A stretch of 64,000 nt of DNA, taken from the sequence record KP869100, one strand, 5' to 3'. Source of the DNA: Escherichia typing phage 1. The translations under genes and the position numbers were made by a program. This document shows positions 6,670 to 45,328 of the stretch, piece after piece (positions within the stretch are counted from its first letter, which is position 1; the number at the start of each line of letters is the position of its first letter). The notes under the pieces are model-generated. The model did no database searches and was not told the origin of the DNA. It worked only from the letters and a program-made list of their open reading frames with translations.

Positions 6670-8144
6670 TATTTATTTGCCTTATTTGCTGTGCTTGGGT
6701 CTTTCGCTGAAGGTGTCTTTGCAGTACCTTCTCCAGCGGTCTTATAACCATCTCCTGAACGGCTTTGGCTATTTGGAGAAAGCTTTTCAGATACTGGCTG
6801 AGACTCATCAGCAGGAGGAAGACCAATATGCTCTCTAAGCTTGTTAGATAGCTCTTTGTCAACTTCCAAAGCACCTACTGCAACAGTCTTCTGAATATAA
6901 GAACCAATTGCTTCAAGGTCTGGAGTTTCGATATCATCATATGTGATTTGTACATGTTCTTCATCATCCCACATATTAAGAGCATAAGTCTGTGCAACTA
7001 AGTCACGGTTAATTACGTTCTTAATTTGCTTCAGCAGAATATCTACTGACATCGCTAATAAGCTTGTCTTAGAATCTGCAAGAGAGAATGAACCGTATTT
7101 TGACTGACCCATAGCAAGAACATCTGACATAAATGCCATCATAATCTGCTTGGAGTATCTGTCAATAATAGAACCTGTATCGTATGCTTTAGCACCCTGT
7201 CTAGAAACTAATGAGAACTCGAAAATATCCTCTTTAGTATCTGGGTCGATATATCTAGGCCAGATTAAACCTGCTCTGTCATTAGCAATCATATCGTTGA
7301 CAACAGTTTTGCAGTATTGTACGAAAGCTTTCTTTTCAGGTTCTGCATTTTCATCCAGATAATCTGGTGGTAAACCAATCTTTGGCATACCTACCAAGTC
7401 TCTTGAAACACCAACAGCTTCATACTCTTCAATCTGTACTTTATACTTCCACGGTACATAAGCATTAAGTAATGGTGAACGACCTTCTGGATTTCCATAT
7501 TCATCGTCATACTTGAACAGCATGAATTTAGCTCGTGGAAGTTTTCTTGTTAGTGGTCTTTCTCCGAGATTAATTGCTCCAGCAATATGTGAAACATTTC
7601 TCAGATTCTGCCTAACACCTGTAACTTTTCTAAAGTCTTCGTCAAAATACCACTTATCAAGTGTTGATTGGTTTCTGATTGGTAATTTAGCCCATCCAAT
7701 TAGACCATCATCAAATTTAGACTGGTACTTTCCTTTTTTACCCTGACGCTTCTTATAAACTTTCTCGTTAACACAGAACCCATAAGTGCAGAATGACATT
7801 ACAGAATTAATAAAATCTGCCCAATCATGCTCCATGTCATCCATTAAAGAATTAAAGAAGTCTGCTCTTTCAAGCATTTTAGGGTCTTGCTCTTTTCCCT
7901 TTGGAGGTACGAATCTCCAGTTGACTTTTCTGACAAACATCTTAATAATATTTACAGATGCTGCTACAGCAGGGTCACGCATCATTAATTGGAAAGTTTT
8001 AATACTTTCAGGGAACCTTAGTGCCTGACGAGGTTCTTCATAGATTCTTCCATTCTTAACCTTCAGACCCAAAGAACCTACTTCACCCATTCTAAATGGT
8101 GGTAAGCTTTCTTGTGTTTCTGTAATATCTGCCATTCTTCTCAC
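6669..8144 (-). CDS. portal protein
   Basis: 491-aa ORF directly downstream of the large terminase; size and position typical of a portal; true start probably a few codons inside the ORF. Confidence 0.65.
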   Translation of the reverse strand: MRRMADITETQESLPPFRMGEVGSLGLKVKNGRIYEEPRQALRFPESIKTFQLMMRDPAVAASVNIIKMFVRKVNWRFVPPKGKEQDPKMLERADFFNSLMDDMEHDWADFINSVMSFCTYGFCVNEKVYKKRQGKKGKYQSKFDDGLIGWAKLPIRNQSTLDKWYFDEDFRKVTGVRQNLRNVSHIAGAINLGERPLTRKLPRAKFMLFKYDDEYGNPEGRSPLLNAYVPWKYKVQIEEYEAVGVSRDLVGMPKIGLPPDYLDENAEPEKKAFVQYCKTVVNDMIANDRAGLIWPRYIDPDTKEDIFEFSLVSRQGAKAYDTGSIIDRYSKQIMMAFMSDVLAMGQSKYGSFSLADSKTSLLAMSVDILLKQIKNVINRDLVAQTYALNMWDDEEHVQITYDDIETPDLEAIGSYIQKTVAVGALEVDKELSNKLREHIGLPPADESQPVSEKLSPNSQSRSGDGYKTAGEGTAKTPSAKDPSTANKANK

Positions 8145-8151
8145 CTAGCTA

Positions 8152-9768
8152 TCAACGTCTAAGCCCCTCATATGGGTTTCCTCTCACTAAATCTGTGTGA
8201 GCACCCATTGATGGTGGCTTGAATAATTTAACTTCGTTAAGACTGTTGAAAGCATCACTGGTAGCATCCACTTGGTCATCTTTAGTTTTACCATCACCAC
8301 AAAAGCCTTCAAGCTCTTGAAAGTAAGCTTCATTCCAACTACCTCTCAAGACTTTTACAAGTCCAGCTTCAGAAGCAGCAGAAAATCCCGCAAAGCGGGT
8401 AACTTTATCTTTATTTGTTGGTTTGGCTCTTGCACGATAACCTTTCTCGGCAAGTTTCCTGATGAGGGATGTTGCGTAGGATTTACCAGCAGCGCCTGGG
8501 TCTTGAGGGATAAAAATACCAGTTCGCTTACCGTCACTTTCAGCAGTCAAATTAATTTGTGTTTCGACTCCAGAGGGTCTATCTCTAAATCTTACTACAT
8601 CAATGATATAATAGCAACCGTCTTTTTTAGATTTACCCATCTTAACACCTGCTGTCCAGTCTGGATTAGGGTTAATCTCAGATGGTAAAGTTGCTGCTAA
8701 GTCCCATGCTCTAACATCAAATACATCTTCTGGTAGTGAATCAACAATTTCACACCATTGTCTTTGCCAATAGTTTGAACCTTCTGCACGAGCCTTCCAG
8801 TTACCGAAACGAAGTCTTGCAACGTTTACAGGGGTGTTGTTTTCCAACTTACCACGGTACTTAGGCTCTAAGAAGTCAAGGATTGGGTTATCATCAATCG
8901 TACCAGAGATAAAGGTGTATGTTTGAGGAATCTCAAGAGGGAACATTTCAAGAATCTTGTCTCTCTCCCAATCAGAAACCATCACACCATCGTTCATTAC
9001 ATACCAACGAATACGACCACACTTTTCAGGGTCTGGATAACCTTCTTCATCTAAGAATGGCTCTACCCAATCGTAAATAAAGTGGTCTCTGTCTGGGTTC
9101 ATAGAAATCTTCATGTATGAATCACCTTCAGCACCAGAACGTAGACGGGTTTGTAGGTATGAAATCTGTGAAGCAGAGAAGTGTGTACCTTCGTCAAAGT
9201 AAATAGCTGAGTATTCAATACCCTGATGACCTTCAGCGTGCTTTTCAAGTTCTAGGTAGGTAAACTTGATAGTTGCCCCAGAAGGGAATGTGATAGTCAT
9301 TTTCTGCTCGTGAGGAATCCCACCAAACTTACCAAATAGTTTCTTTGCAGCAGGCCATAAACCACCTTGTAGCTGTGTTGTATTTCGACGGAAATATACA
9401 GCATTATAGTTAGGGTCTTCAATAAATCTTAAAGAGTCCATTAACAATGCAGCAGTTTTACCAGCACCAGCAGCACCACCATAAAGAACCAAGTCAGCAT
9501 TAGTGTTTAAAAAGACCTCTTGAGAACCCGGCTGAGGGGCTACATAATTCTTATCAGTCATCAATTTAAAGATAAGGCGAACTTGGTCTGGTGTGTATCT
9601 TAATAAAGTCAGAATTTGAGTTGGAAGGAATTTAGAGGGGTCTTTACCGAATGATTTGATAATTTCTTTTACTTCATCAGAAAGCCCCAACTCTCCAGCT
9701 AGGACTTTCCTAACATCTTCCACTCGCTTCTGCTTAACAGCATTTAAGTCCATTAAGCACCTCCGCAA
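8152..9768 (-). CDS. terL: terminase large subunit
   Basis: Walker A-like LYGGAAGAGKTAAL near the N-terminus; 538 aa; first gene of the head operon. Confidence 0.75.
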   Translation of the reverse strand: MRRCLMDLNAVKQKRVEDVRKVLAGELGLSDEVKEIIKSFGKDPSKFLPTQILTLLRYTPDQVRLIFKLMTDKNYVAPQPGSQEVFLNTNADLVLYGGAAGAGKTAALLMDSLRFIEDPNYNAVYFRRNTTQLQGGLWPAAKKLFGKFGGIPHEQKMTITFPSGATIKFTYLELEKHAEGHQGIEYSAIYFDEGTHFSASQISYLQTRLRSGAEGDSYMKISMNPDRDHFIYDWVEPFLDEEGYPDPEKCGRIRWYVMNDGVMVSDWERDKILEMFPLEIPQTYTFISGTIDDNPILDFLEPKYRGKLENNTPVNVARLRFGNWKARAEGSNYWQRQWCEIVDSLPEDVFDVRAWDLAATLPSEINPNPDWTAGVKMGKSKKDGCYYIIDVVRFRDRPSGVETQINLTAESDGKRTGIFIPQDPGAAGKSYATSLIRKLAEKGYRARAKPTNKDKVTRFAGFSAASEAGLVKVLRGSWNEAYFQELEGFCGDGKTKDDQVDATSDAFNSLNEVKLFKPPSMGAHTDLVRGNPYEGLRR

Positions 9769-33257: not shown

Positions 33258-33436
33258 CGGTTTTTATTAAATATTTTTTGTAAGGTTGGGAAATGAACGG
33301 GCGCGCACGACTACCACAAAACAGAACACAAATCAAGAATTATTTTTCAACCCGCTACAAATTTTTCTCTTGACTTTTGGGGAGAGGTGGAGTAAGAGGG
33401 GGAGAGGGGTTGGTCTGGCTCTCTATAAAAACCTAC

Positions 33437-33613
33437 CTGCACGATTCTAAAATGATTTTTCTTGCCCGACCTGAGCGGGGTCTGCACGTTTTGAAAATGA
33501 AAAAGCTCTTTGGAGATTACCTGCACAGTTTGAAAATGAATTTTCTCTTTGGAGTTCAAAATTCTCTCTACAGATTTCTCTACAGAACTCTACCTGCACA
33601 ATCCTGAAATGAA
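33437..33613. repeat. four direct repeats CCTGCAC-N-TTYTGAAAATGA in a non-coding spacer
   Basis: copies near 33437, 33482, 33530 and 33594, spaced 44-64 bp, plus duplicated CTCTACAGA. Confidence 0.55.
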
Positions 33614-33685
33614 AAAGCCCTCCTTACCTGAAAAATTTACCAGATAAAGAAGGCTTAGTCTATTGTGAATATTATACAGAGTTTC

Positions 33686-34471
33686 TTAGTTCTTTGCGTC
33701 TAAGAAGGTAACTTCTGGTGAAGAGAAGACCGTCTCGATATCCTCATCAGTTCTTGCATAAATATATGTATCTGCATCACTGCCAAATGTTACGGCTATC
33801 CTGTGATTGCTCTTCGACAGGTGGGTAACTAGAGCGTTACTTAGAGACATCTTCTCAACCGGAGGGTTACTTTGATGTATCTTACCTTTTCTTCGTCTGA
33901 AGAGGGTAACTGTATCATCTTTGAACGTTACTACACCTGCAAAGTATTCTGGTTCACAGTAGTTATTCCAACCTGAGCGTAACTTGTGGTACATCTCTCC
34001 TTCGTAGACATACAGATAAACATCTACACTCTTCATCACCTGATTAATGATAACTGTGACGGCTTGAGGGTCAAGTCCACCGATACCTGCACCAATCATA
34101 GGTAAACCAACCTTCTTCAACTGATTAACTTCACAGTATCTGTTAAGCTGTTTCAAAGATGACTCTAAAGCACTGTATCGGGCATCTTTACCAGTCTTAA
34201 GCTGAGTGTAAAGGTTAGCTATACGACCTTGTTTTAAACGTGCTACAGAGAAATTACCCAGTAAATTTTCACAGGGTTTGTGTCCTATACCACCTGCATA
34301 CAGATAAACTTCTGTATCGGTCTCATATGCTTTTGGGTAAAGTTTAGAAATCTTGTCAGCGATACCTGCACCCATTAAATTCATACAGTTGCAACCGTGA
34401 CCGATGATGTCAAACTTACCTTTATCAAATGCGGCAAAGATATCACCATTAATTATTTTTACAATACCCAT
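33686..34471 (-). CDS. macro-domain protein (ADP-ribose binding/processing) with unknown C-terminal extension
   Basis: N-terminal INGDIF...DIIGHGCNCMNLMGAGIA and later GLPMIGAGIGGL match the two glycine-rich macro-domain motifs. Confidence 0.65.
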   Translation of the reverse strand: MGIVKIINGDIFAAFDKGKFDIIGHGCNCMNLMGAGIADKISKLYPKAYETDTEVYLYAGGIGHKPCENLLGNFSVARLKQGRIANLYTQLKTGKDARYSALESSLKQLNRYCEVNQLKKVGLPMIGAGIGGLDPQAVTVIINQVMKSVDVYLYVYEGEMYHKLRSGWNNYCEPEYFAGVVTFKDDTVTLFRRRKGKIHQSNPPVEKMSLSNALVTHLSKSNHRIAVTFGSDADTYIYARTDEDIETVFSSPEVTFLDAKN

Positions 34472-34672
34472 TTAACATCTCTCCCAAGATTCTTTGTCTT
34501 CTGAAGGTTTTACACGTTGTCCTTCGTGGTCTACCCAGATGCACCCACAACCTTCACAGATTACTGGCATTGCATAACCAGCTTTAAAGTCATCTTCAGT
34601 GATAAGACCTTTTAAGTCACCTGTATCACGTCCGAACATTTCGATAGAACAGTCTTTGCAGAAGTCAGCCAT
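34472..34672 (-). CDS. small Cys-rich (zinc-ribbon-like) protein
   Basis: ORF 34472-34762 trimmed to the internal ATG (MADFCKDCS...CEGCGC). Confidence 0.4.
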   Translation of the reverse strand: MADFCKDCSIEMFGRDTGDLKGLITEDDFKAGYAMPVICEGCGCIWVDHEGQRVKPSEDKESWERC

Positions 34673-35497: not shown

Positions 35498-35766
35498 TTC
35501 CTCGTTTTAAGAACTGCTAAGATTTCTTTAGAGTCTGGTAGGAACCATGTGTAGTGATTCTCTTTGATTTCTGGATGAGTGTCAACCTTTATTTTGCACT
35601 CTTTACCAACATGCTTAAGCTGTGCTGTGATACCTTGCATAAAGATGTGACACATTACATTATCCATAATCGTAGGTAAGAAATCAATCCTCATGTAAGT
35701 ATCTTTCGGTCTCGGTAGAAGTAAGTAACCTTCTGTGTAGAAAGTTTCATCATTACTTTGTGTCAT
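35494..35766 (-). CDS. hypothetical protein
   Basis: 90-aa ORF. Confidence 0.4.
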   Translation of the reverse strand: MTQSNDETFYTEGYLLLPRPKDTYMRIDFLPTIMDNVMCHIFMQGITAQLKHVGKECKIKVDTHPEIKENHYTWFLPDSKEILAVLKTRK

Positions 35767-36032
35767 TACTGCTTATTCCCTAATAAAATCATATCAATCA
35801 AGTTGTTAGCTTTCATAGTACACTGATAGTACCCGTCACGATAAAACTCAAGGGCTTCTGATAAGTCTGCACCAGTGTTACCTTTGACAGCATATCTTAC
35901 ATCTTCCTGAGTGTACTTATCACTTTCACTTACTTGGGAGTTTTTGAATGTATTGCTCACTTTGTTCGTTGAACACCCTGACATAGTTATCAGTAACACA
36001 AACATTATAAAACTCTGGCTTAGTCTTTTCAT
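35766..36032 (-). CDS. lipoprotein (o-spanin/Rz1-like candidate)
   Basis: signal sequence with lipobox ITMSGC; start lies inside the 3' end of the upstream membrane/coiled-coil gene in another frame. Confidence 0.35.
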   Translation of the reverse strand: MKRLSQSFIMFVLLITMSGCSTNKVSNTFKNSQVSESDKYTQEDVRYAVKGNTGADLSEALEFYRDGYYQCTMKANNLIDMILLGNKQ

Positions 36033-36273
36033 ATGTCAGTACCTCTTTTGTGTGCTTATTCTTAGCAAGCACGTCTTTCAAATCATTTTTGTAATTGGTG
36101 CTCAGTGTAGCTAATCCTTCCTGATAAGCATCTTTAGCAACACTTATTAGCTTCTGGTTGTTTAGCTCAGTTTCAGCAACTTGGTAGTCTCTGTAAGAGT
36201 ATCCTCCCCAGACACCTGCCCCAACTAAGAAAACAATTATGAAAGTAGCTTGACAGAACTCTTTAAATGTCAT
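35926..36273 (-). CDS. membrane-anchored coiled-coil protein (i-spanin/Rz-like candidate)
   Basis: N-terminal transmembrane helix (ATFIIVFLVGAGVWGG) followed by a helical charged region. Confidence 0.35.
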   Translation of the reverse strand: MTFKEFCQATFIIVFLVGAGVWGGYSYRDYQVAETELNNQKLISVAKDAYQEGLATLSTNYKNDLKDVLAKNKHTKEVLTYEKTKPEFYNVCVTDNYVRVFNEQSEQYIQKLPSK

Positions 36274-36325: not shown

Positions 36326-36805
36326 TTAACCGAGGACTTTAGCAAGGATATTTGCAGCCATCGAAGAAGCTTTTGCAGCAGCAACTACGCCAGCTTTGAC
36401 AGTGCTATCCTTAATAGCAGATACCGTTGCAGCATCAGTAAAGAGATAAGTGATTGTTTTGGAACCACTTGTAAAGGAAAGCATAAGAGTAGTTTCCAGA
36501 TTGAAAGAGCGATACGGAGCACCTTCTTTAACGATACCTTCAGCACCTAACTCTGAAGCCTTACCCATATCATAGATAGTCATCAGGTTTTCTTTGTGTG
36601 CAGTCGTTGAACCAACACCTTTTACGTGCTTCTTAACGTTCAACAATGCACGATATTCACGAATGCTACCATCAGCTTTTACATTAACAGCACGGAAAAT
36701 TTTACCTTCAAAGTTACCTTGAATCATTTTACGAACTACTTCAGATTTGTTTGCCGTATCGTCCAGTGCTACCGTAATAATATTGTTCATAAGTTCTTCT
36801 CTCAA
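36326..36805 (-). CDS. hypothetical protein
   Basis: 159-aa ORF. Confidence 0.45.
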   Translation of the reverse strand: MREELMNNIITVALDDTANKSEVVRKMIQGNFEGKIFRAVNVKADGSIREYRALLNVKKHVKGVGSTTAHKENLMTIYDMGKASELGAEGIVKEGAPYRSFNLETTLMLSFTSGSKTITYLFTDAATVSAIKDSTVKAGVVAAAKASSMAANILAKVLG

Positions 36806-37497
36806 TGTTTAACTAACATAGTTTTAATGTGTGGAAGGATTCTGTTTACCTTCTGAACATTATTCTCTGTATCTTCTATAAAGCATACTATATTAAAGTA
36901 AGGAAGAATGCAAGACTGAATCATCCTCACTTTCAAACTTTCTGCACTTATAGAGTTAGTTCCAAAACCACGCATAAAAAGCAAGTAATCATGCTCTATA
37001 TTGTGCCTTAAAAACATCTCAGTAGGTATTCTCTGAGATTCACCTCTTGCTGTCAAGAGTCCAACTGCTGCATGATTTGCAATTGCATCAATAATGTTGA
37101 AAACATATGTTGGCTTTGCTCTTACAGAATCAAGAAGATTAGTGTACTGTGAGAATGAACCATCAGTCAATTCCGTTGAGCAATCTTCGTGATTAAAATT
37201 TGTAAGAACACCATCAATATCTGCTAAGATGAGGTTACCTTTTTCTACAAGGTCTTTATTGACTATGACTAAACTATCGCGCCTTACACCTATAGTTTGT
37301 CCAGTCTCTTTGTCCACAACGTTCACAATTGGTTCTGATGTGTGGAACTCTTCCAGTGAACATACAACTTCTCTTGCAGTGTCTTCAAAATCCCTACACT
37401 GTTCTGGAGTCCATACACAGGAATCAAGACCTAACTCATGAGGATGTAAGTCATAAGCGTGGCACAGGACTTCATCAGACTTTTTTAATTTTTTCAT
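36802..37497 (-). CDS. HAD-superfamily phosphatase-like protein
   Basis: ILADIDGVLTNF matches the HAD motif I (DxDG) in the C-terminal half. Confidence 0.4.
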   Translation of the reverse strand: MKKLKKSDEVLCHAYDLHPHELGLDSCVWTPEQCRDFEDTAREVVCSLEEFHTSEPIVNVVDKETGQTIGVRRDSLVIVNKDLVEKGNLILADIDGVLTNFNHEDCSTELTDGSFSQYTNLLDSVRAKPTYVFNIIDAIANHAAVGLLTARGESQRIPTEMFLRHNIEHDYLLFMRGFGTNSISAESLKVRMIQSCILPYFNIVCFIEDTENNVQKVNRILPHIKTMLVKH

Positions 37498-38023
37498 GGT
37501 TTACCTTAGAAATGTTTGTTGCAAATTCACATTGAGCAATAACTTTCATGTTGTTATAGACATCTTGAGAATATTTCTTAGCTTTAGGGATTCTGTACGA
37601 ATACCCAGCATTATATGATGCTAAAACTTTTTGTAAAGTCTTCTTTGACTTTGGGTGACCATGCACCTTCGTCCAAAACTCAAGCTCTTTATGTGTTTCT
37701 TTTGCGGCATAGTCAAAATCTTTTAAGAGTTTCTTTTTAGCAACATTAGGACTAATTTTGTTACGCTTTACAACAGTCTTCAAGTGATTCTGGAAGATAC
37801 CATAGTCATGGGTCTTTTTATTTTCTACCTTCAGACCTAACTCTGACTCTTGTAAGGCTATAGCTGCTAGAGTGATACCCCAACCTTTACCCATGTTATT
37901 CTCACCATACTGGTAAGCTTTTAACATGTTCACTTTTTGGCTAATTGATAGTTCTGGGCAGTCAACTGCATAAGATAAGTGTGCTGTAAACATTAAGCAC
38001 AAACCTAGAATCAATTTCTTCAT
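37475..38023 (-). CDS. secreted lytic transglycosylase-like protein
   Basis: N-terminal signal peptide (MKKLILGLCLMFTAHLSYA); ESELG...DYGIFQ...SYNAGYS resemble SLT-domain motifs. Confidence 0.5.
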   Translation of the reverse strand: MKKLILGLCLMFTAHLSYAVDCPELSISQKVNMLKAYQYGENNMGKGWGITLAAIALQESELGLKVENKKTHDYGIFQNHLKTVVKRNKISPNVAKKKLLKDFDYAAKETHKELEFWTKVHGHPKSKKTLQKVLASYNAGYSYRIPKAKKYSQDVYNNMKVIAQCEFATNISKVNHEKIKKV

Positions 38024-42604: not shown

Positions 42605-44386
42605 TTAAAGCTGCTTGTCAATATTATTTCGAATATCACCAAGAGTTGTGTAACCGTACTGCTCAGAGTCGCTAAAGACTAAACGTAAAGCACAAGCTGG
42701 ATGTTCAAGTGCATCTGCAAAGCTCTGGAATCCATAGCCATCTACAGCTTTCAAATTCTCACCATCCCACATAGGTGCTACACCACCAAAGGCAGATTTC
42801 TTAACACCACTATCTGTTTTAGGGTCTTTTGCAAGCATAATCTCTTTGCCACCAATGCTTGCAAGAGTTGCTTTGACAGCAAATGCAAAGGTGTCACGAG
42901 TCATGTACTGGTAAGTGTAAGAGCCTACACCAAACACCACGTTAGAGCTTGCAAACCCCATTTCATACAGACGCTTCAGGATTTCGTTTGCACGTTCCAA
43001 CGTGATAGAGTCGCCATAGATAAGTCCAATGTGCTCATCCAGTACCTTAAAACCTTTAGAGTTGATAGTTCCTCCAAAGATGTTATACAAGGTCTTAATA
43101 GCTCCATCAATCTCTGCTACAGGGCGTGTTACAACGTTTGCAGAACCAACCATATAAGCGTTCTTCAACATCACTGTATCAGCAACTTCAAAGTCTTCTC
43201 TGTCAACAACCATTTCGTAGCCTTCTGACAGTAGCCATCCAGCAATACCATAGTTGATGTTTTCAAGCTTCATGTTAAGAACAGCATTCAACATTGTGTC
43301 ACTGACTTCCAGCTTGCTTAGGTGCTCGTAATAAGCCTTCTTAGCACATTCTAAGTGGATTGCTTTATAACCTGTGACAATATGTACAGGGTCTCCAGAG
43401 TCAGGGCGAATTACCAGTTTGCCATCACGTTCCATAATTTCTTTACGAAGTGCTGGTAAGATTTCTGACACAGTTCTCCAGAAGTTATAAGTATCTGAAA
43501 CAATACTTGCAATACCTGTTGGGTAAGTTTCTGTTAAGAAACGACGGAAGGTTTGTAACTCACCTTTAAAGCGTCTTTCTTCTTCAATCAACTCATTACC
43601 ACCTTCCCAAGCAATGTTTGCACACATTACAGAGTGCTCAGTGGCTGGTACAGAGCTACCAATATCAGAGATTGGGTAGGACTGTCCATAGATTCGTTTA
43701 GCCGTGTATACAGCAGGGAAGCTATCAGTCCCTTTAAAGCTGGTTAAGTGACCTACAGCGTTAAATGCGTCATCAGTAAAGCCGGACATACCACGCATAG
43801 CAAAATCATGGCACTGATAAGGTAAATGTAAGTCATTGTCACAAGTAAGGTCAGCCCACTTCTTACAGATGCGTTTGTAATGCAATGCAATAGTTGCAAT
43901 GGTGCAAGCCTTCCAAATTTCAGCAGAGAAAGCATCTTCCAGATAACCTGCTACCCAATGAAAACCTGAAACAGTGTTCTGAAAGACAATCATCGGGACA
44001 CGCATTGGAACAACTGTGCCTTCTTCTACAGCGTATACTTCAACTGGTAGATAACCTAAGTCGTGAAGTGCTTCCCAATGCTCTCGACCGATAGCATCTT
44101 TACCCAGAACACCATTCATGACTTCTAAGATTTCATCAATGGCTTCTTTTTTATCACGTTCAAAGAAAGTGGCATTCCAGTGGTCTATCAAGTAATCTTT
44201 AACAAAACGTTGAATACCAAAAGCCACTACACCGTCAATTGCTAAAGGGCTGTTAAACCATTTATCACTACGTGGTGTCAGGTTGAACATCAAGTATTCT
44301 GTTGCACTAGGATACTGGTAAACATGACCAGATTTGTAAGCATCTGCATTTAAACCTGCTGGTACTGCATAAAGTGATTTAGTCAT
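42605..44386 (-). CDS. nicotinamide phosphoribosyltransferase (NAMPT) family protein; Namat-like candidate
   Basis: 593-aa ORF, N-terminus LNADAYKSGH typical of NAMPT/NadV-family enzymes; immediately downstream of a PRPP-synthetase-like gene. Confidence 0.6.
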   Translation of the reverse strand: MTKSLYAVPAGLNADAYKSGHVYQYPSATEYLMFNLTPRSDKWFNSPLAIDGVVAFGIQRFVKDYLIDHWNATFFERDKKEAIDEILEVMNGVLGKDAIGREHWEALHDLGYLPVEVYAVEEGTVVPMRVPMIVFQNTVSGFHWVAGYLEDAFSAEIWKACTIATIALHYKRICKKWADLTCDNDLHLPYQCHDFAMRGMSGFTDDAFNAVGHLTSFKGTDSFPAVYTAKRIYGQSYPISDIGSSVPATEHSVMCANIAWEGGNELIEEERRFKGELQTFRRFLTETYPTGIASIVSDTYNFWRTVSEILPALRKEIMERDGKLVIRPDSGDPVHIVTGYKAIHLECAKKAYYEHLSKLEVSDTMLNAVLNMKLENINYGIAGWLLSEGYEMVVDREDFEVADTVMLKNAYMVGSANVVTRPVAEIDGAIKTLYNIFGGTINSKGFKVLDEHIGLIYGDSITLERANEILKRLYEMGFASSNVVFGVGSYTYQYMTRDTFAFAVKATLASIGGKEIMLAKDPKTDSGVKKSAFGGVAPMWDGENLKAVDGYGFQSFADALEHPACALRLVFSDSEQYGYTTLGDIRNNIDKQL

Positions 44387-44431
44387 CTTTTAATCTCTCT
44401 CAAAATGGGGCTTTTAAGCCCCTATAAAGTT

Positions 44432-45328
44432 TCAATCAAGGTTTGCTACAGTAACTTGACCATAATGTGTTAAGCCACGGTCTTTAGCTTCCCCTAAAGA
44501 GTTTGTAGTGTAGATATGGTCAATACCATTGTCAAGAAGGTTTTCAACATCTTTAGAGAAGATACCATGTGTTACATAGAGTTCCACACGTTTTGTACCT
44601 GCTTCACGGAGATGCTTAGCTGCTTCTATGAAGGTTCGACCACCATCACAGATATCATCCAGAATCATGACGGTTTTATCTGTCAAATCAACATCATCAA
44701 GGATTCGCATACCAGTAATTTCACCAGTCTTAAGGTTACGCACCTTAGACATTGTGATATATGGTTTATCCACCTCTTTAGCGGTCTCTGCAACCTTCTT
44801 AGCAGCACCTGCATCTGGGGCTACTAAGTAATCAACCAGTGGGTCATTTGCATAGTGGACTGCAATCTCCTTTTGAGGAATACTCTGGAAGCAGTTAAAC
44901 AGGTTATCTGGTACATAGCTGTGAGGGTCAACTGCACAGACTGCGCCAAATCCCATTGCATTAATCTGTTTAGCAAAAACCTTTAAAGCTGCTGCGTCAC
45001 CTTTAAACATGTGACGGTCATATCGTGCATTTGGTAAGTAGTAAAAGATGACAGTCTTTAAAGCATAATCATGAGGAATTAAATCATCAATTGCTTCTTT
45101 AGCAAGTGCCACAGCAAACAATGTGTCCTTGTCATAACCTTTTACAATCATAATCACATTGTTGATGGATGATGCTGCATAAGCAGTAAAATCAACAAAC
45201 TCTGGCGAAAAGTGTCCACCAATCTCACCAGAAGGGAATTGGACGATGTTAAACTCTTCTTCATGAGTCCCTTTAGTTGGTGAATGAACTGTAACACGGA
45301 TAGATGTTTTCATAGTTTTCTCTCTCAA
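44432..45328 (-). CDS. ribose-phosphate pyrophosphokinase (PRPP synthetase) family protein; Adps-like candidate
   Basis: VMILDDICDGGRT phosphoribosyl-binding motif and DPHS segment of Prs-family enzymes; 298 aa. Confidence 0.6.
   Translation of the reverse strand: MREKTMKTSIRVTVHSPTKGTHEEEFNIVQFPSGEIGGHFSPEFVDFTAYAASSINNVIMIVKGYDKDTLFAVALAKEAIDDLIPHDYALKTVIFYYLPNARYDRHMFKGDAAALKVFAKQINAMGFGAVCAVDPHSYVPDNLFNCFQSIPQKEIAVHYANDPLVDYLVAPDAGAAKKVAETAKEVDKPYITMSKVRNLKTGEITGMRILDDVDLTDKTVMILDDICDGGRTFIEAAKHLREAGTKRVELYVTHGIFSKDVENLLDNGIDHIYTTNSLGEAKDRGLTHYGQVTVANLD

Follow-up and report, generated by a model that had tools for sequence, protein, structure and literature searches.

Here we describe the macro protein encoded at positions 33686-34471 of DNA from Escherichia typing phage 1 (sequence record KP869100; the whole stretch of 64,000 nucleotides is called the window), in which a macrodomain of the ALC1/TARG1/Poa1p class is followed by an orphan C-terminal domain. 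The macrodomain has a lysine-less active site of histidine, asparagine and glutamine (H/N/Q), and the same phage carries NARP1, a gene pair for NAD+ chemistry. The gene is already annotated as macro—what is new is the two-domain architecture paired with the prototype NARP1. By analogy with Tk.4 of phage T4, reversal of DarT2 modification is the leading candidate for its role, and one that we put forward tentatively.

Two independent studies from 2025-26 gave phage macrodomains different roles: Tk.4 against DarTG2, and Adpp against aRES by way of NARP1. Tk.4 and Adpp are members of a single lysine-less H/N/Q radiation, which extends over about 2,800 sequenced phages. Therapy against Salmonella and E. 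coli makes use of Felix O1-type phages, and if the host defences that the macro gene counters were known, host range would be easier to predict.

Gene and domain layout

The gene and its two domains are as follows.

33686-34471, minus strand: macro gene, an ATG-initiated open reading frame (ORF) of 261 amino acids plus stop; ortholog of bas63_0095 and of the Felix O1 'phosphatase'
34004-34471, minus strand: macrodomain, residues 1-156, ALC1/TARG1/Poa1p class, H/N/Q subtype; from Pfam, a profile against the PDB, Foldseek, a site table and a tree
33689-34003, minus strand: orphan C-terminal domain, residues 157-261; one helix, six beta-strands and a terminal helix

An earlier note on this DNA (hereafter the original prediction) had placed a gene at these positions; the ORF is real, and its strand is corrected here to minus, the plus-strand reading of 33686-34471 being full of stops. 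The protein is 100% identical to ECTP15_02537 of E. coli O157 typing phage 15 (KP869113.1, genus Felixounavirus), which carries the GenBank label 'macro domain protein', and 97% identical to bas63_0095 of phage Bas63 (MZ501086). Relatives are named 'phosphatase', 'putative phosphatase' or 'O-acetyl-ADP-ribose deacetylase' in GenBank, and phrog_335 matches the protein over its full length (E=4e-113).

Fold and class

Residues 1-156 form a confident macrodomain of the ALC1/TARG1/Poa1p class. The Pfam Macro family (PF01661) scores 32.3 bits against a gathering cut-off of 22, and an AlphaFold2 model built from 26 homologs (pLDDT 91, pTM 0.89) matches many macrodomains in Foldseek with probability 1.0; the best matches in the PDB are the TARG1, Poa1p and DarG macrodomains. 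Run against the PDB, the family profile scores TARG1 (65 bits), M. tuberculosis DarG (62.5), SCO6735 (60.7) and yeast Poa1p (60.4) about equally. The original prediction had put a macro domain in the N-terminal 150 or so residues, quoted two glycine-rich macro motifs and named structure prediction as a check—both motifs are present in the protein, and the model and Foldseek bear out the fold. Its comparators MacroD, YmdB and Af1521 had to be replaced: chains of those names are absent from the PDB matches of the family profile at E<=0.01, and we dropped that assignment in favour of the ALC1/TARG1/Poa1p class, within it the H/N/Q subgroup of Tk.4, Adpp and SCO6735.

For the residue comparisons, reference sequences were checked against PDB chains before alignment, and the register of SCO6735 was verified. 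In the resulting site table and neighbour-joining trees, the Felix O1 family falls into one radiation with Tk.4, all sampled NARP1-adjacent Adpps, Poa1p and SCO6735, and this radiation stands apart from DarG, chimallivirus AdfM and TARG1. Homologs of the macro family occur in 2,846 phage records. In one distant metagenomic member of 339 residues (P0026), the macro type is joined to a cREC_REC domain ('cyclic-phosphate processing receiver', PF20274); this fusion hints at a link of some members to RNA-repair or ADP-ribose (ADPR)-cyclic-phosphate chemistry.

Catalytic residues

Three motifs make up the site.

34385-34399, minus strand: loop 1 motif H25-G-C-N28-C29; H25, G26, N28 and C29 invariant in the 26 homologs
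34202-34216, minus strand: N86-L-Y-T-Q90 motif, invariant; Q90 lies at the catalytic-lysine position of TARG1 (K84) and DarG (K80)
34076-34102, minus strand: phosphate-binding loop P124-M-I-G-A-G-I-G-G132; P124, G127 and G129 invariant; aligned to TARG1 'IGCGLDRL'

The residues invariant in the 26 homologs thus include H25, G26, N28, C29, N86, L87, T89, Q90, P124, G127 and G129, and H25, N28, Q90, G127 and G129 are unchanged in homologs down to 30% identity. Since none of the 26 homologs departs from H25, N28 or Q90, the sequence argues for a catalytically competent hydrolase, which would act at the ribose 1'' position.

Several characterised macrodomains share part or all of this site. SCO6735 of S. 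coelicolor (PDB 5E3B), likewise a lysine-less ALC1-class macrodomain, has His24, Asn27, Gln85 and Gly128 where the phage protein has H25, N28, Q90 and G129. It hydrolyses the thymidine-linked ADP-ribose that DNA carries and protects against DarT, and its Q85A mutant is inactive and N27S nearly so; the proposed mechanism is water-mediated, with the glutamine positioning the distal ribose. Unlike the phage protein, SCO6735 is bacterial (only 25% identical, 30 bits) and has a longer loop after the glutamine (the post-Q loop) and the DNA-positioning lysines K34 and K89. The first of these is replaced by A35 here, and Tk.4 has a serine there (TMGSGVA). H25 and N28 also align with H24 and N27 of the Adpp of Vibrio phage Gary. 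Poa1p (PDB 6LFQ), an ADPR-1''-phosphate phosphatase, shares the H-x-C-N-C motif and the absence of the lysine; however, it has a serine at position 90, a 15-residue loop and a large insertion.

The lysine-type macrodomains are further away. TARG1/OARD1 (PDB 4J5S) is the best PDB match in structure and sequence, but both members of its Lys84/Asp125 dyad are missing, with Q90 aligned to K84 and G131 to D125. DarG2 and chimallivirus AdfM (PhiKZ gp104 and PhiPA3 gp108, K-type like DarG; Cell Rep 2026) belong to the same macrodomain class, have a comparable GAGxGGL phosphate loop, are likewise proposed to take off DarT2 marks, and share the active-site Asn22 (Asn23), as N28 aligns with DarG N22. 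In contrast to the phage protein, they lack H25 and have a catalytic lysine (Lys80 in DarG2, Lys78 in PhiKZ AdfM) at the position of the invariant Q90. PhiPA3 AdfM scores only 23 bits; with this score and its K-type site, chimallivirus-type AdfM is ruled out as the closest relative. Also ruled out is a DarG ortholog: NCBIfam DarG (NF048014) reaches 47.5 bits against a cut-off of 250 and matches only the macro part (residues 7-162), the catalytic lysine is missing, and a DarT-binding domain such as DarG2 has at its C-terminus was not found in the macro protein. Macros of the TaqDarG type occur in 291 phage records, with no Felix-type phage among the 40 listed. Two non-orthologous macro types that differ in the catalytic residue, PhiKZ gp104 (K-type) and T4 Tk.4 (Q-type), now bear the name 'AdfM', which each received independently.

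The C-terminal domain

The remainder of the protein, residues 157-261, is an orphan domain known only from this fusion. Coverage of the protein reaches 80% or more in just 256 of the 2,846 phage records, so that the fusion is essentially confined to the Felix O1-like phages and their relatives. Weak, repeated matches to propeller proteins of the PQQ/BamB type (hhalign probability 63% over 72 columns) hint that the domain may derive from about two beta-propeller blades. It diverges much faster than the macrodomain: identity is 81% for macro against 52% for the C-terminal domain in P0002, and 53% against 22% in P0009. Charge was considered as a clue to DNA binding or DNA mimicry and set aside as inconsistent across the family (isoelectric points from 4.6 to 9.5).

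A further sign of rapid change comes from contig L027, which is 92-94% identical to the window on both flanks of the macro gene and has no nucleotide similarity to it between a point 143 nt inside the macro ORF and one about 190 nt past the stop of that ORF.

L027 10143-10934, corresponding to window 34329-33500: replaced segment; cassette-like allele replacement confined to the macro gene and about 190 nt downstream

The breakpoint lies just past the conserved HGCNC...MGAGIA region. At the protein level the L027 macro allele is 41% identical, the CxxC mini-gene upstream is 100% identical, and Namat is 97% identical. Together with the faster C-terminal evolution, this replacement fits an arms-race gene.

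Genomic setting

The two NARP1 genes lie on the same strand.

44432-45328, minus strand: Adps, a PRPP-synthetase-like ADPR pyrophosphokinase (Pfam Pribosyltran/Pribosyl_synth); annotated start 45313
42605-44386, minus strand: Namat, a Nampt-like nicotinamide ADPR-transferase (Pfam NAPRTase/NAMPT_N); part of NARP1

NARP1 (Adps plus Namat) rebuilds NAD+ from ADPR and nicotinamide, and was discovered and genetically tested in Bas63 (JohannRWettstein, Felixounavirus). Adps is 38% identical to Gary Adps and syntenic with bas63_0079, Namat is 98% identical to bas63_0080 and 37% to Gary Namat, and the gene order at this locus matches that of Bas63, which also has a macro gene (bas63_0095). Judged by this homology, the pair at 42605-45328 is NARP1, and its GenBank labels, 'nicotinate phosphoribosyltransferase' and 'prs', are functionally misleading. 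The original prediction had read the pair at 42.6-45.3 kb as NAD+ salvage; it was right about NAD+ chemistry, although the pathway is NARP1 rather than classical salvage, and its wider suggestion that the phage manipulates NAD+/ADP-ribose chemistry is supported.

As in the phages that encode an Adpp, NARP1 is present in the genome; however, 8.1 kb and about 15 annotated genes separate the macro gene from Namat, whereas operon-linked Adpp genes are defined as lying within two genes of NARP1. Relatives with a macro protein of only 33-35% identity still show the order Namat - rIIA - rIIB - Dam methylase - HAD/PNKP-like - ... - macro, and the linkage of Namat to macro is therefore synteny by descent. 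Outside this group the association loosens: 52 of the 57 single-domain relatives have no Adps or Namat within 10 kb, and 997 'Escherichia' phage records carry the macro type, compared with only 190 that carry a Namat/Nampt homolog, so that most Escherichia phages with the macro type have no Namat. These counts show that the macro family has a NARP1-independent function. With synteny by descent in the Felix-type phages and mostly unlinked single-domain relatives, we dropped the NARP1 neighbourhood as a discriminator between roles.

Candidate functions

In the reading we tentatively favour, the phage would use the macrodomain hydrolase as a counter-defence: the enzyme would bind ADP-ribose and cleave whatever sits on the 1'' carbon of the distal ribose. 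At the lysine-less H25/N28/Q90 site, the glutamine, held by the asparagine, may position the ribose ring for an activated water, as proposed for SCO6735. The most likely substrate in vivo would be the thymidine-linked ADP-ribose that DarT2 of a host DarTG2 system puts on single-stranded phage DNA; like T4 Tk.4/'AdfM', the macro protein would in that case serve as an orphan antitoxin, so that the modified DNA could again be replicated and transcribed, and the freed ADP-ribose could be recycled into NAD+ by the phage's own NARP1. The fast-evolving C-terminal domain would be an accessory module for targeting, oligomerisation or binding a host defence protein. What the analysis establishes is the fold and class of the macrodomain, its active-site residues, its family relationships and its genomic surroundings; substrate, phenotype and C-terminal role are inferences. 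In T4, tk.4 is the sole conditionally essential gene in the presence of DarTG2, and a clean knockout sensitises the phage (bioRxiv 10.1101/2025.11.20.689424); the authors of this HIDEN-SEQ preprint named the gene adfM and inferred the enzymology of its product (bioRxiv 10.1101/2025.11.20.689424). Tk.4 is the best-scoring characterised relative by BLASTP (34% identity, 82 bits; JG004-type Adpp 76, Gary Adpp 52). Tk.4 and the Felix-type protein both belong to phrog_335, agree exactly in the HGCNC and NLYTQ motifs, share the short post-Q loop and are encoded by stand-alone counter-defence genes with no NARP1 linkage. Tk.4 differs in being a single macrodomain of 155 residues, whereas the Felix-type protein has an extra orphan domain of 105 residues. 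T4 is not known to carry NARP1; the Felix-type phage does.

The main competitor, by analogy with Gary, is that the macro protein is an Adpp-type ADPR-1''-phosphate phosphatase feeding NARP1, which we regard as possible and somewhat unlikely. In Vibrio phage Gary, the gene for Adpp (gp137), a macro protein resembling Poa1p, stands between those for Adps and Namat. The RES-domain defence aRES yields ADPR-1''-phosphate, which Adpp turns into ADPR, and this lets NARP1 rebuild NAD+ (bioRxiv 10.64898/2026.01.28.702374). H24A and N27A constructs of Adpp were made, and Adpp mutations abolish anti-defence (bioRxiv 10.64898/2026.01.28.702374). Applied to the Felix-type phage, aRES would phosphorolyse NAD+ to nicotinamide and ADPR-1''-phosphate, which NARP1 cannot use, the macro protein would remove the 1''-phosphate, and Adps and Namat would rebuild NAD+—a distal, non-operonic NARP1-AP, and one compatible with DarT2 reversal, both reactions breaking the ribose 1'' bond. 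In favour of this, Gary Adpp is a validated ADPR-1P phosphatase, needed by NARP1-AP to defeat aRES; it is a detectable homolog (27% identity, E=2e-13; 30% for the JG004 type) with the same H/N/Q signature, the mutated residues mapping to H25 and N28; and the Felix family nests in the radiation of NARP1-adjacent Adpps. NARP1 is moreover in the same phage and on the same strand, with a Namat 98% identical to the proven one of Bas63 and a module order kept in very divergent relatives. aRES systems have been cloned from E. coli, Klebsiella and Enterobacter, and the Adpp survey, which covered only two genes either side of NARP1 and listed no Felix-type phage (bioRxiv 10.64898/2026.01.28.702374), would have missed a macro gene at this distance. 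Against it, the gene is not beside or between Adps and Namat, its nearest single-domain relatives mostly occur without NARP1, and the Adpps in part 1 of Table S1 are single-domain, none with the extra C-terminal domain. The loop also differs. All eight sampled Adpp subtypes have a 10-15-residue aromatic 'QY.[YW]' loop (one Adpp loop reads 'QYNYGREEGRVY'), and most have 'HQ' and 'YGQ', whereas the Felix family shares 'HG' and 'YTQ' with Tk.4 and has a short, Tk.4-type loop of 8 residues ('QLKTGKDARY'). In the published table of about 128 operon-linked Adpps, 103 'YGQY' and 13 'YTQY' entries give at least 116 with the long aromatic 'QY' loop; these motif counts showed no entry with a short loop, and in the only two 'NLYTQ' entries the long loop continues after the motif. 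The long aromatic loop is our own empirical criterion, not one taken from the Adpp authors, and as a marker of specificity it is only suggestive—the Adpp table backs it, but there are exceptions in metagenomic loci.

Several points weigh against DarT2 reversal itself. Those exceptions are one: in a set of 79 viral contigs, NARP1 stands 4 kb from one short-loop macro and is absent from the 10 kb around each of eight 'QY' macros. The family hidden Markov model (HMM) ranks the NARP1-adjacent JG004-type Adpp (96.6 bits) above Tk.4 (93.0), making it the top scorer among relatives from a characterised context, with Gary Adpp at 66.3. Identity to Tk.4 is only 34%, the evidence on Tk.4 is genetic only, and the DNA-positioning K34 of SCO6735 is missing, though Tk.4 too has no lysine at that site. 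An Adpp role would fit equally with the presence of NARP1 and a Namat...macro order kept across deep divergence; no resemblance to the DarT-binding domain of DarG was found in the C-terminal domain; and a literature search on Felix-type phages against DarTG2 or aRES found nothing, nor any experiment on a Felix O1-type protein. Overall sequence similarity, then, does not separate a Tk.4-like from an Adpp-like role, and it is the motif details and the non-operonic position that slightly favour DarT2 reversal. A different ADP-ribose conjugate is an unlikely substrate: protein-linked (Glu/Asp) or RNA-linked ADP-ribose, or O-acetyl-ADP-ribose, made by another host defence ADP-ribosyltransferase or by the phage itself when it modifies host proteins. 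By both sequence and fold the best PDB match is TARG1, SCO6735 also removes Glu-linked ADP-ribose from protein, P0026 joins the macro type to cREC_REC, the module contains a polynucleotide-kinase/HAD-like gene, and some GenBank records label the ortholog 'O-acetyl-ADP-ribose deacetylase'; those names are automatic annotations, however, both TARG1 catalytic residues are absent, and SCO6735 is reported inactive on 5'-phosphate- and 2'-OH-linked nucleic-acid ADP-ribose (the discussion of that paper being inconsistent on RNA phosphate ends). Very improbable is a non-catalytic binder, acting as a sponge for ADP-ribose-derived signals or as a stoichiometric inhibitor, with the C-terminal domain doing the essential work. 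The missing canonical lysine and the quick evolution of that domain would suit it, and SCO6735, DarG and TARG1, even when catalytically dead, inhibit DarT through direct contact; yet the residues unchanged down to 30% identity are the same ones needed for catalysis in Adpp and SCO6735, and scans with PHROGs and PADLOC gave no similarity to known sponge proteins.

The roles that the original prediction had proposed fared unevenly: removal of ADP-ribosyl marks survives as DarT2 reversal, whereas for the other suggestion, degradation of ADPR-derived immune signals, nothing was found in support of cyclic-ADPR signals as the target; DarT2 reversal and ADPR-1''-phosphate dephosphorylation are more specific, literature-backed alternatives. 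A more speculative and rather improbable view is that the protein is a generalist '1''-deconjugase', which would release free ADP-ribose both from DarT2-modified thymidines and from aRES-made ADPR-1''-phosphate for NARP1 to turn into NAD+, the possibly two-blade C-terminal domain adding a second activity. That activity could be binding and inhibiting a host defence protein, as the DarG C-domain binds DarT, or ring-like oligomerisation. If true, T4 Tk.4/AdfM and Adpp, two counter-defences that were described apart from each other, would be connected through one enzyme. Gene 0095 of Bas63 offers an existing genetic system for three questions: whether the enzyme is substrate-specific or promiscuous, whether NARP1-AP reaches beyond operons, and what the orphan domain contributes.

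Other features around the gene

The macro gene is the last in a string of minus-strand genes that begins with an i-/o-spanin pair, so the region, which the original prediction had called early, is not purely early. The pair spans 35766-36273 (minus strand): the i-spanin at 35926-36273 (phrog_1152, Rz-like) overlaps an o-spanin-like lipoprotein ORF at 35766-36032 with an 'LLITMSGC' lipobox. Between NARP1 and macro, a HAD/PNKP-like 'polynucleotide kinase' gene at about 36800-37500 (ortholog of bas63_0087) is kept across deep divergence, at 7565-8227 in relative L085 and 7675-8361 in L086.

Directly upstream of macro, 34472-34672 (minus strand) encodes a zinc-ribbon-like protein of 66 residues (phrog_2210) in which CxxC occurs as two pairs, CKDC...CEGC; its stop codon directly adjoins the start codon of macro, suggesting that the two may be translationally coupled. 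We dropped it as a conserved partner, as the divergent relative L086 has a different CxxC mini-protein and L085 has none.

Downstream, the string closes with a terminator-like feature.

33615-33656, minus strand: terminator-like hairpin with a 17-bp stem and a T-run, 30 nt after the macro stop codon

Beyond the hairpin, the intergenic stretch 33420-33627 holds four copies of a motif of about 20-36 nt, on the minus strand TTCATTTTCAAA-NN-GTGCAGGTA, which occurs nowhere else in the window (3 matches against 0.14 expected by chance). A scan of this stretch with Rfam gave no match, and KP869113 annotates no gene there; in the equivalent gap of Bas63, two small ORFs are annotated on the opposite strand (bas63_0096 and bas63_0097). 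The repeats might function as an operator or promoter, or represent a small RNA.

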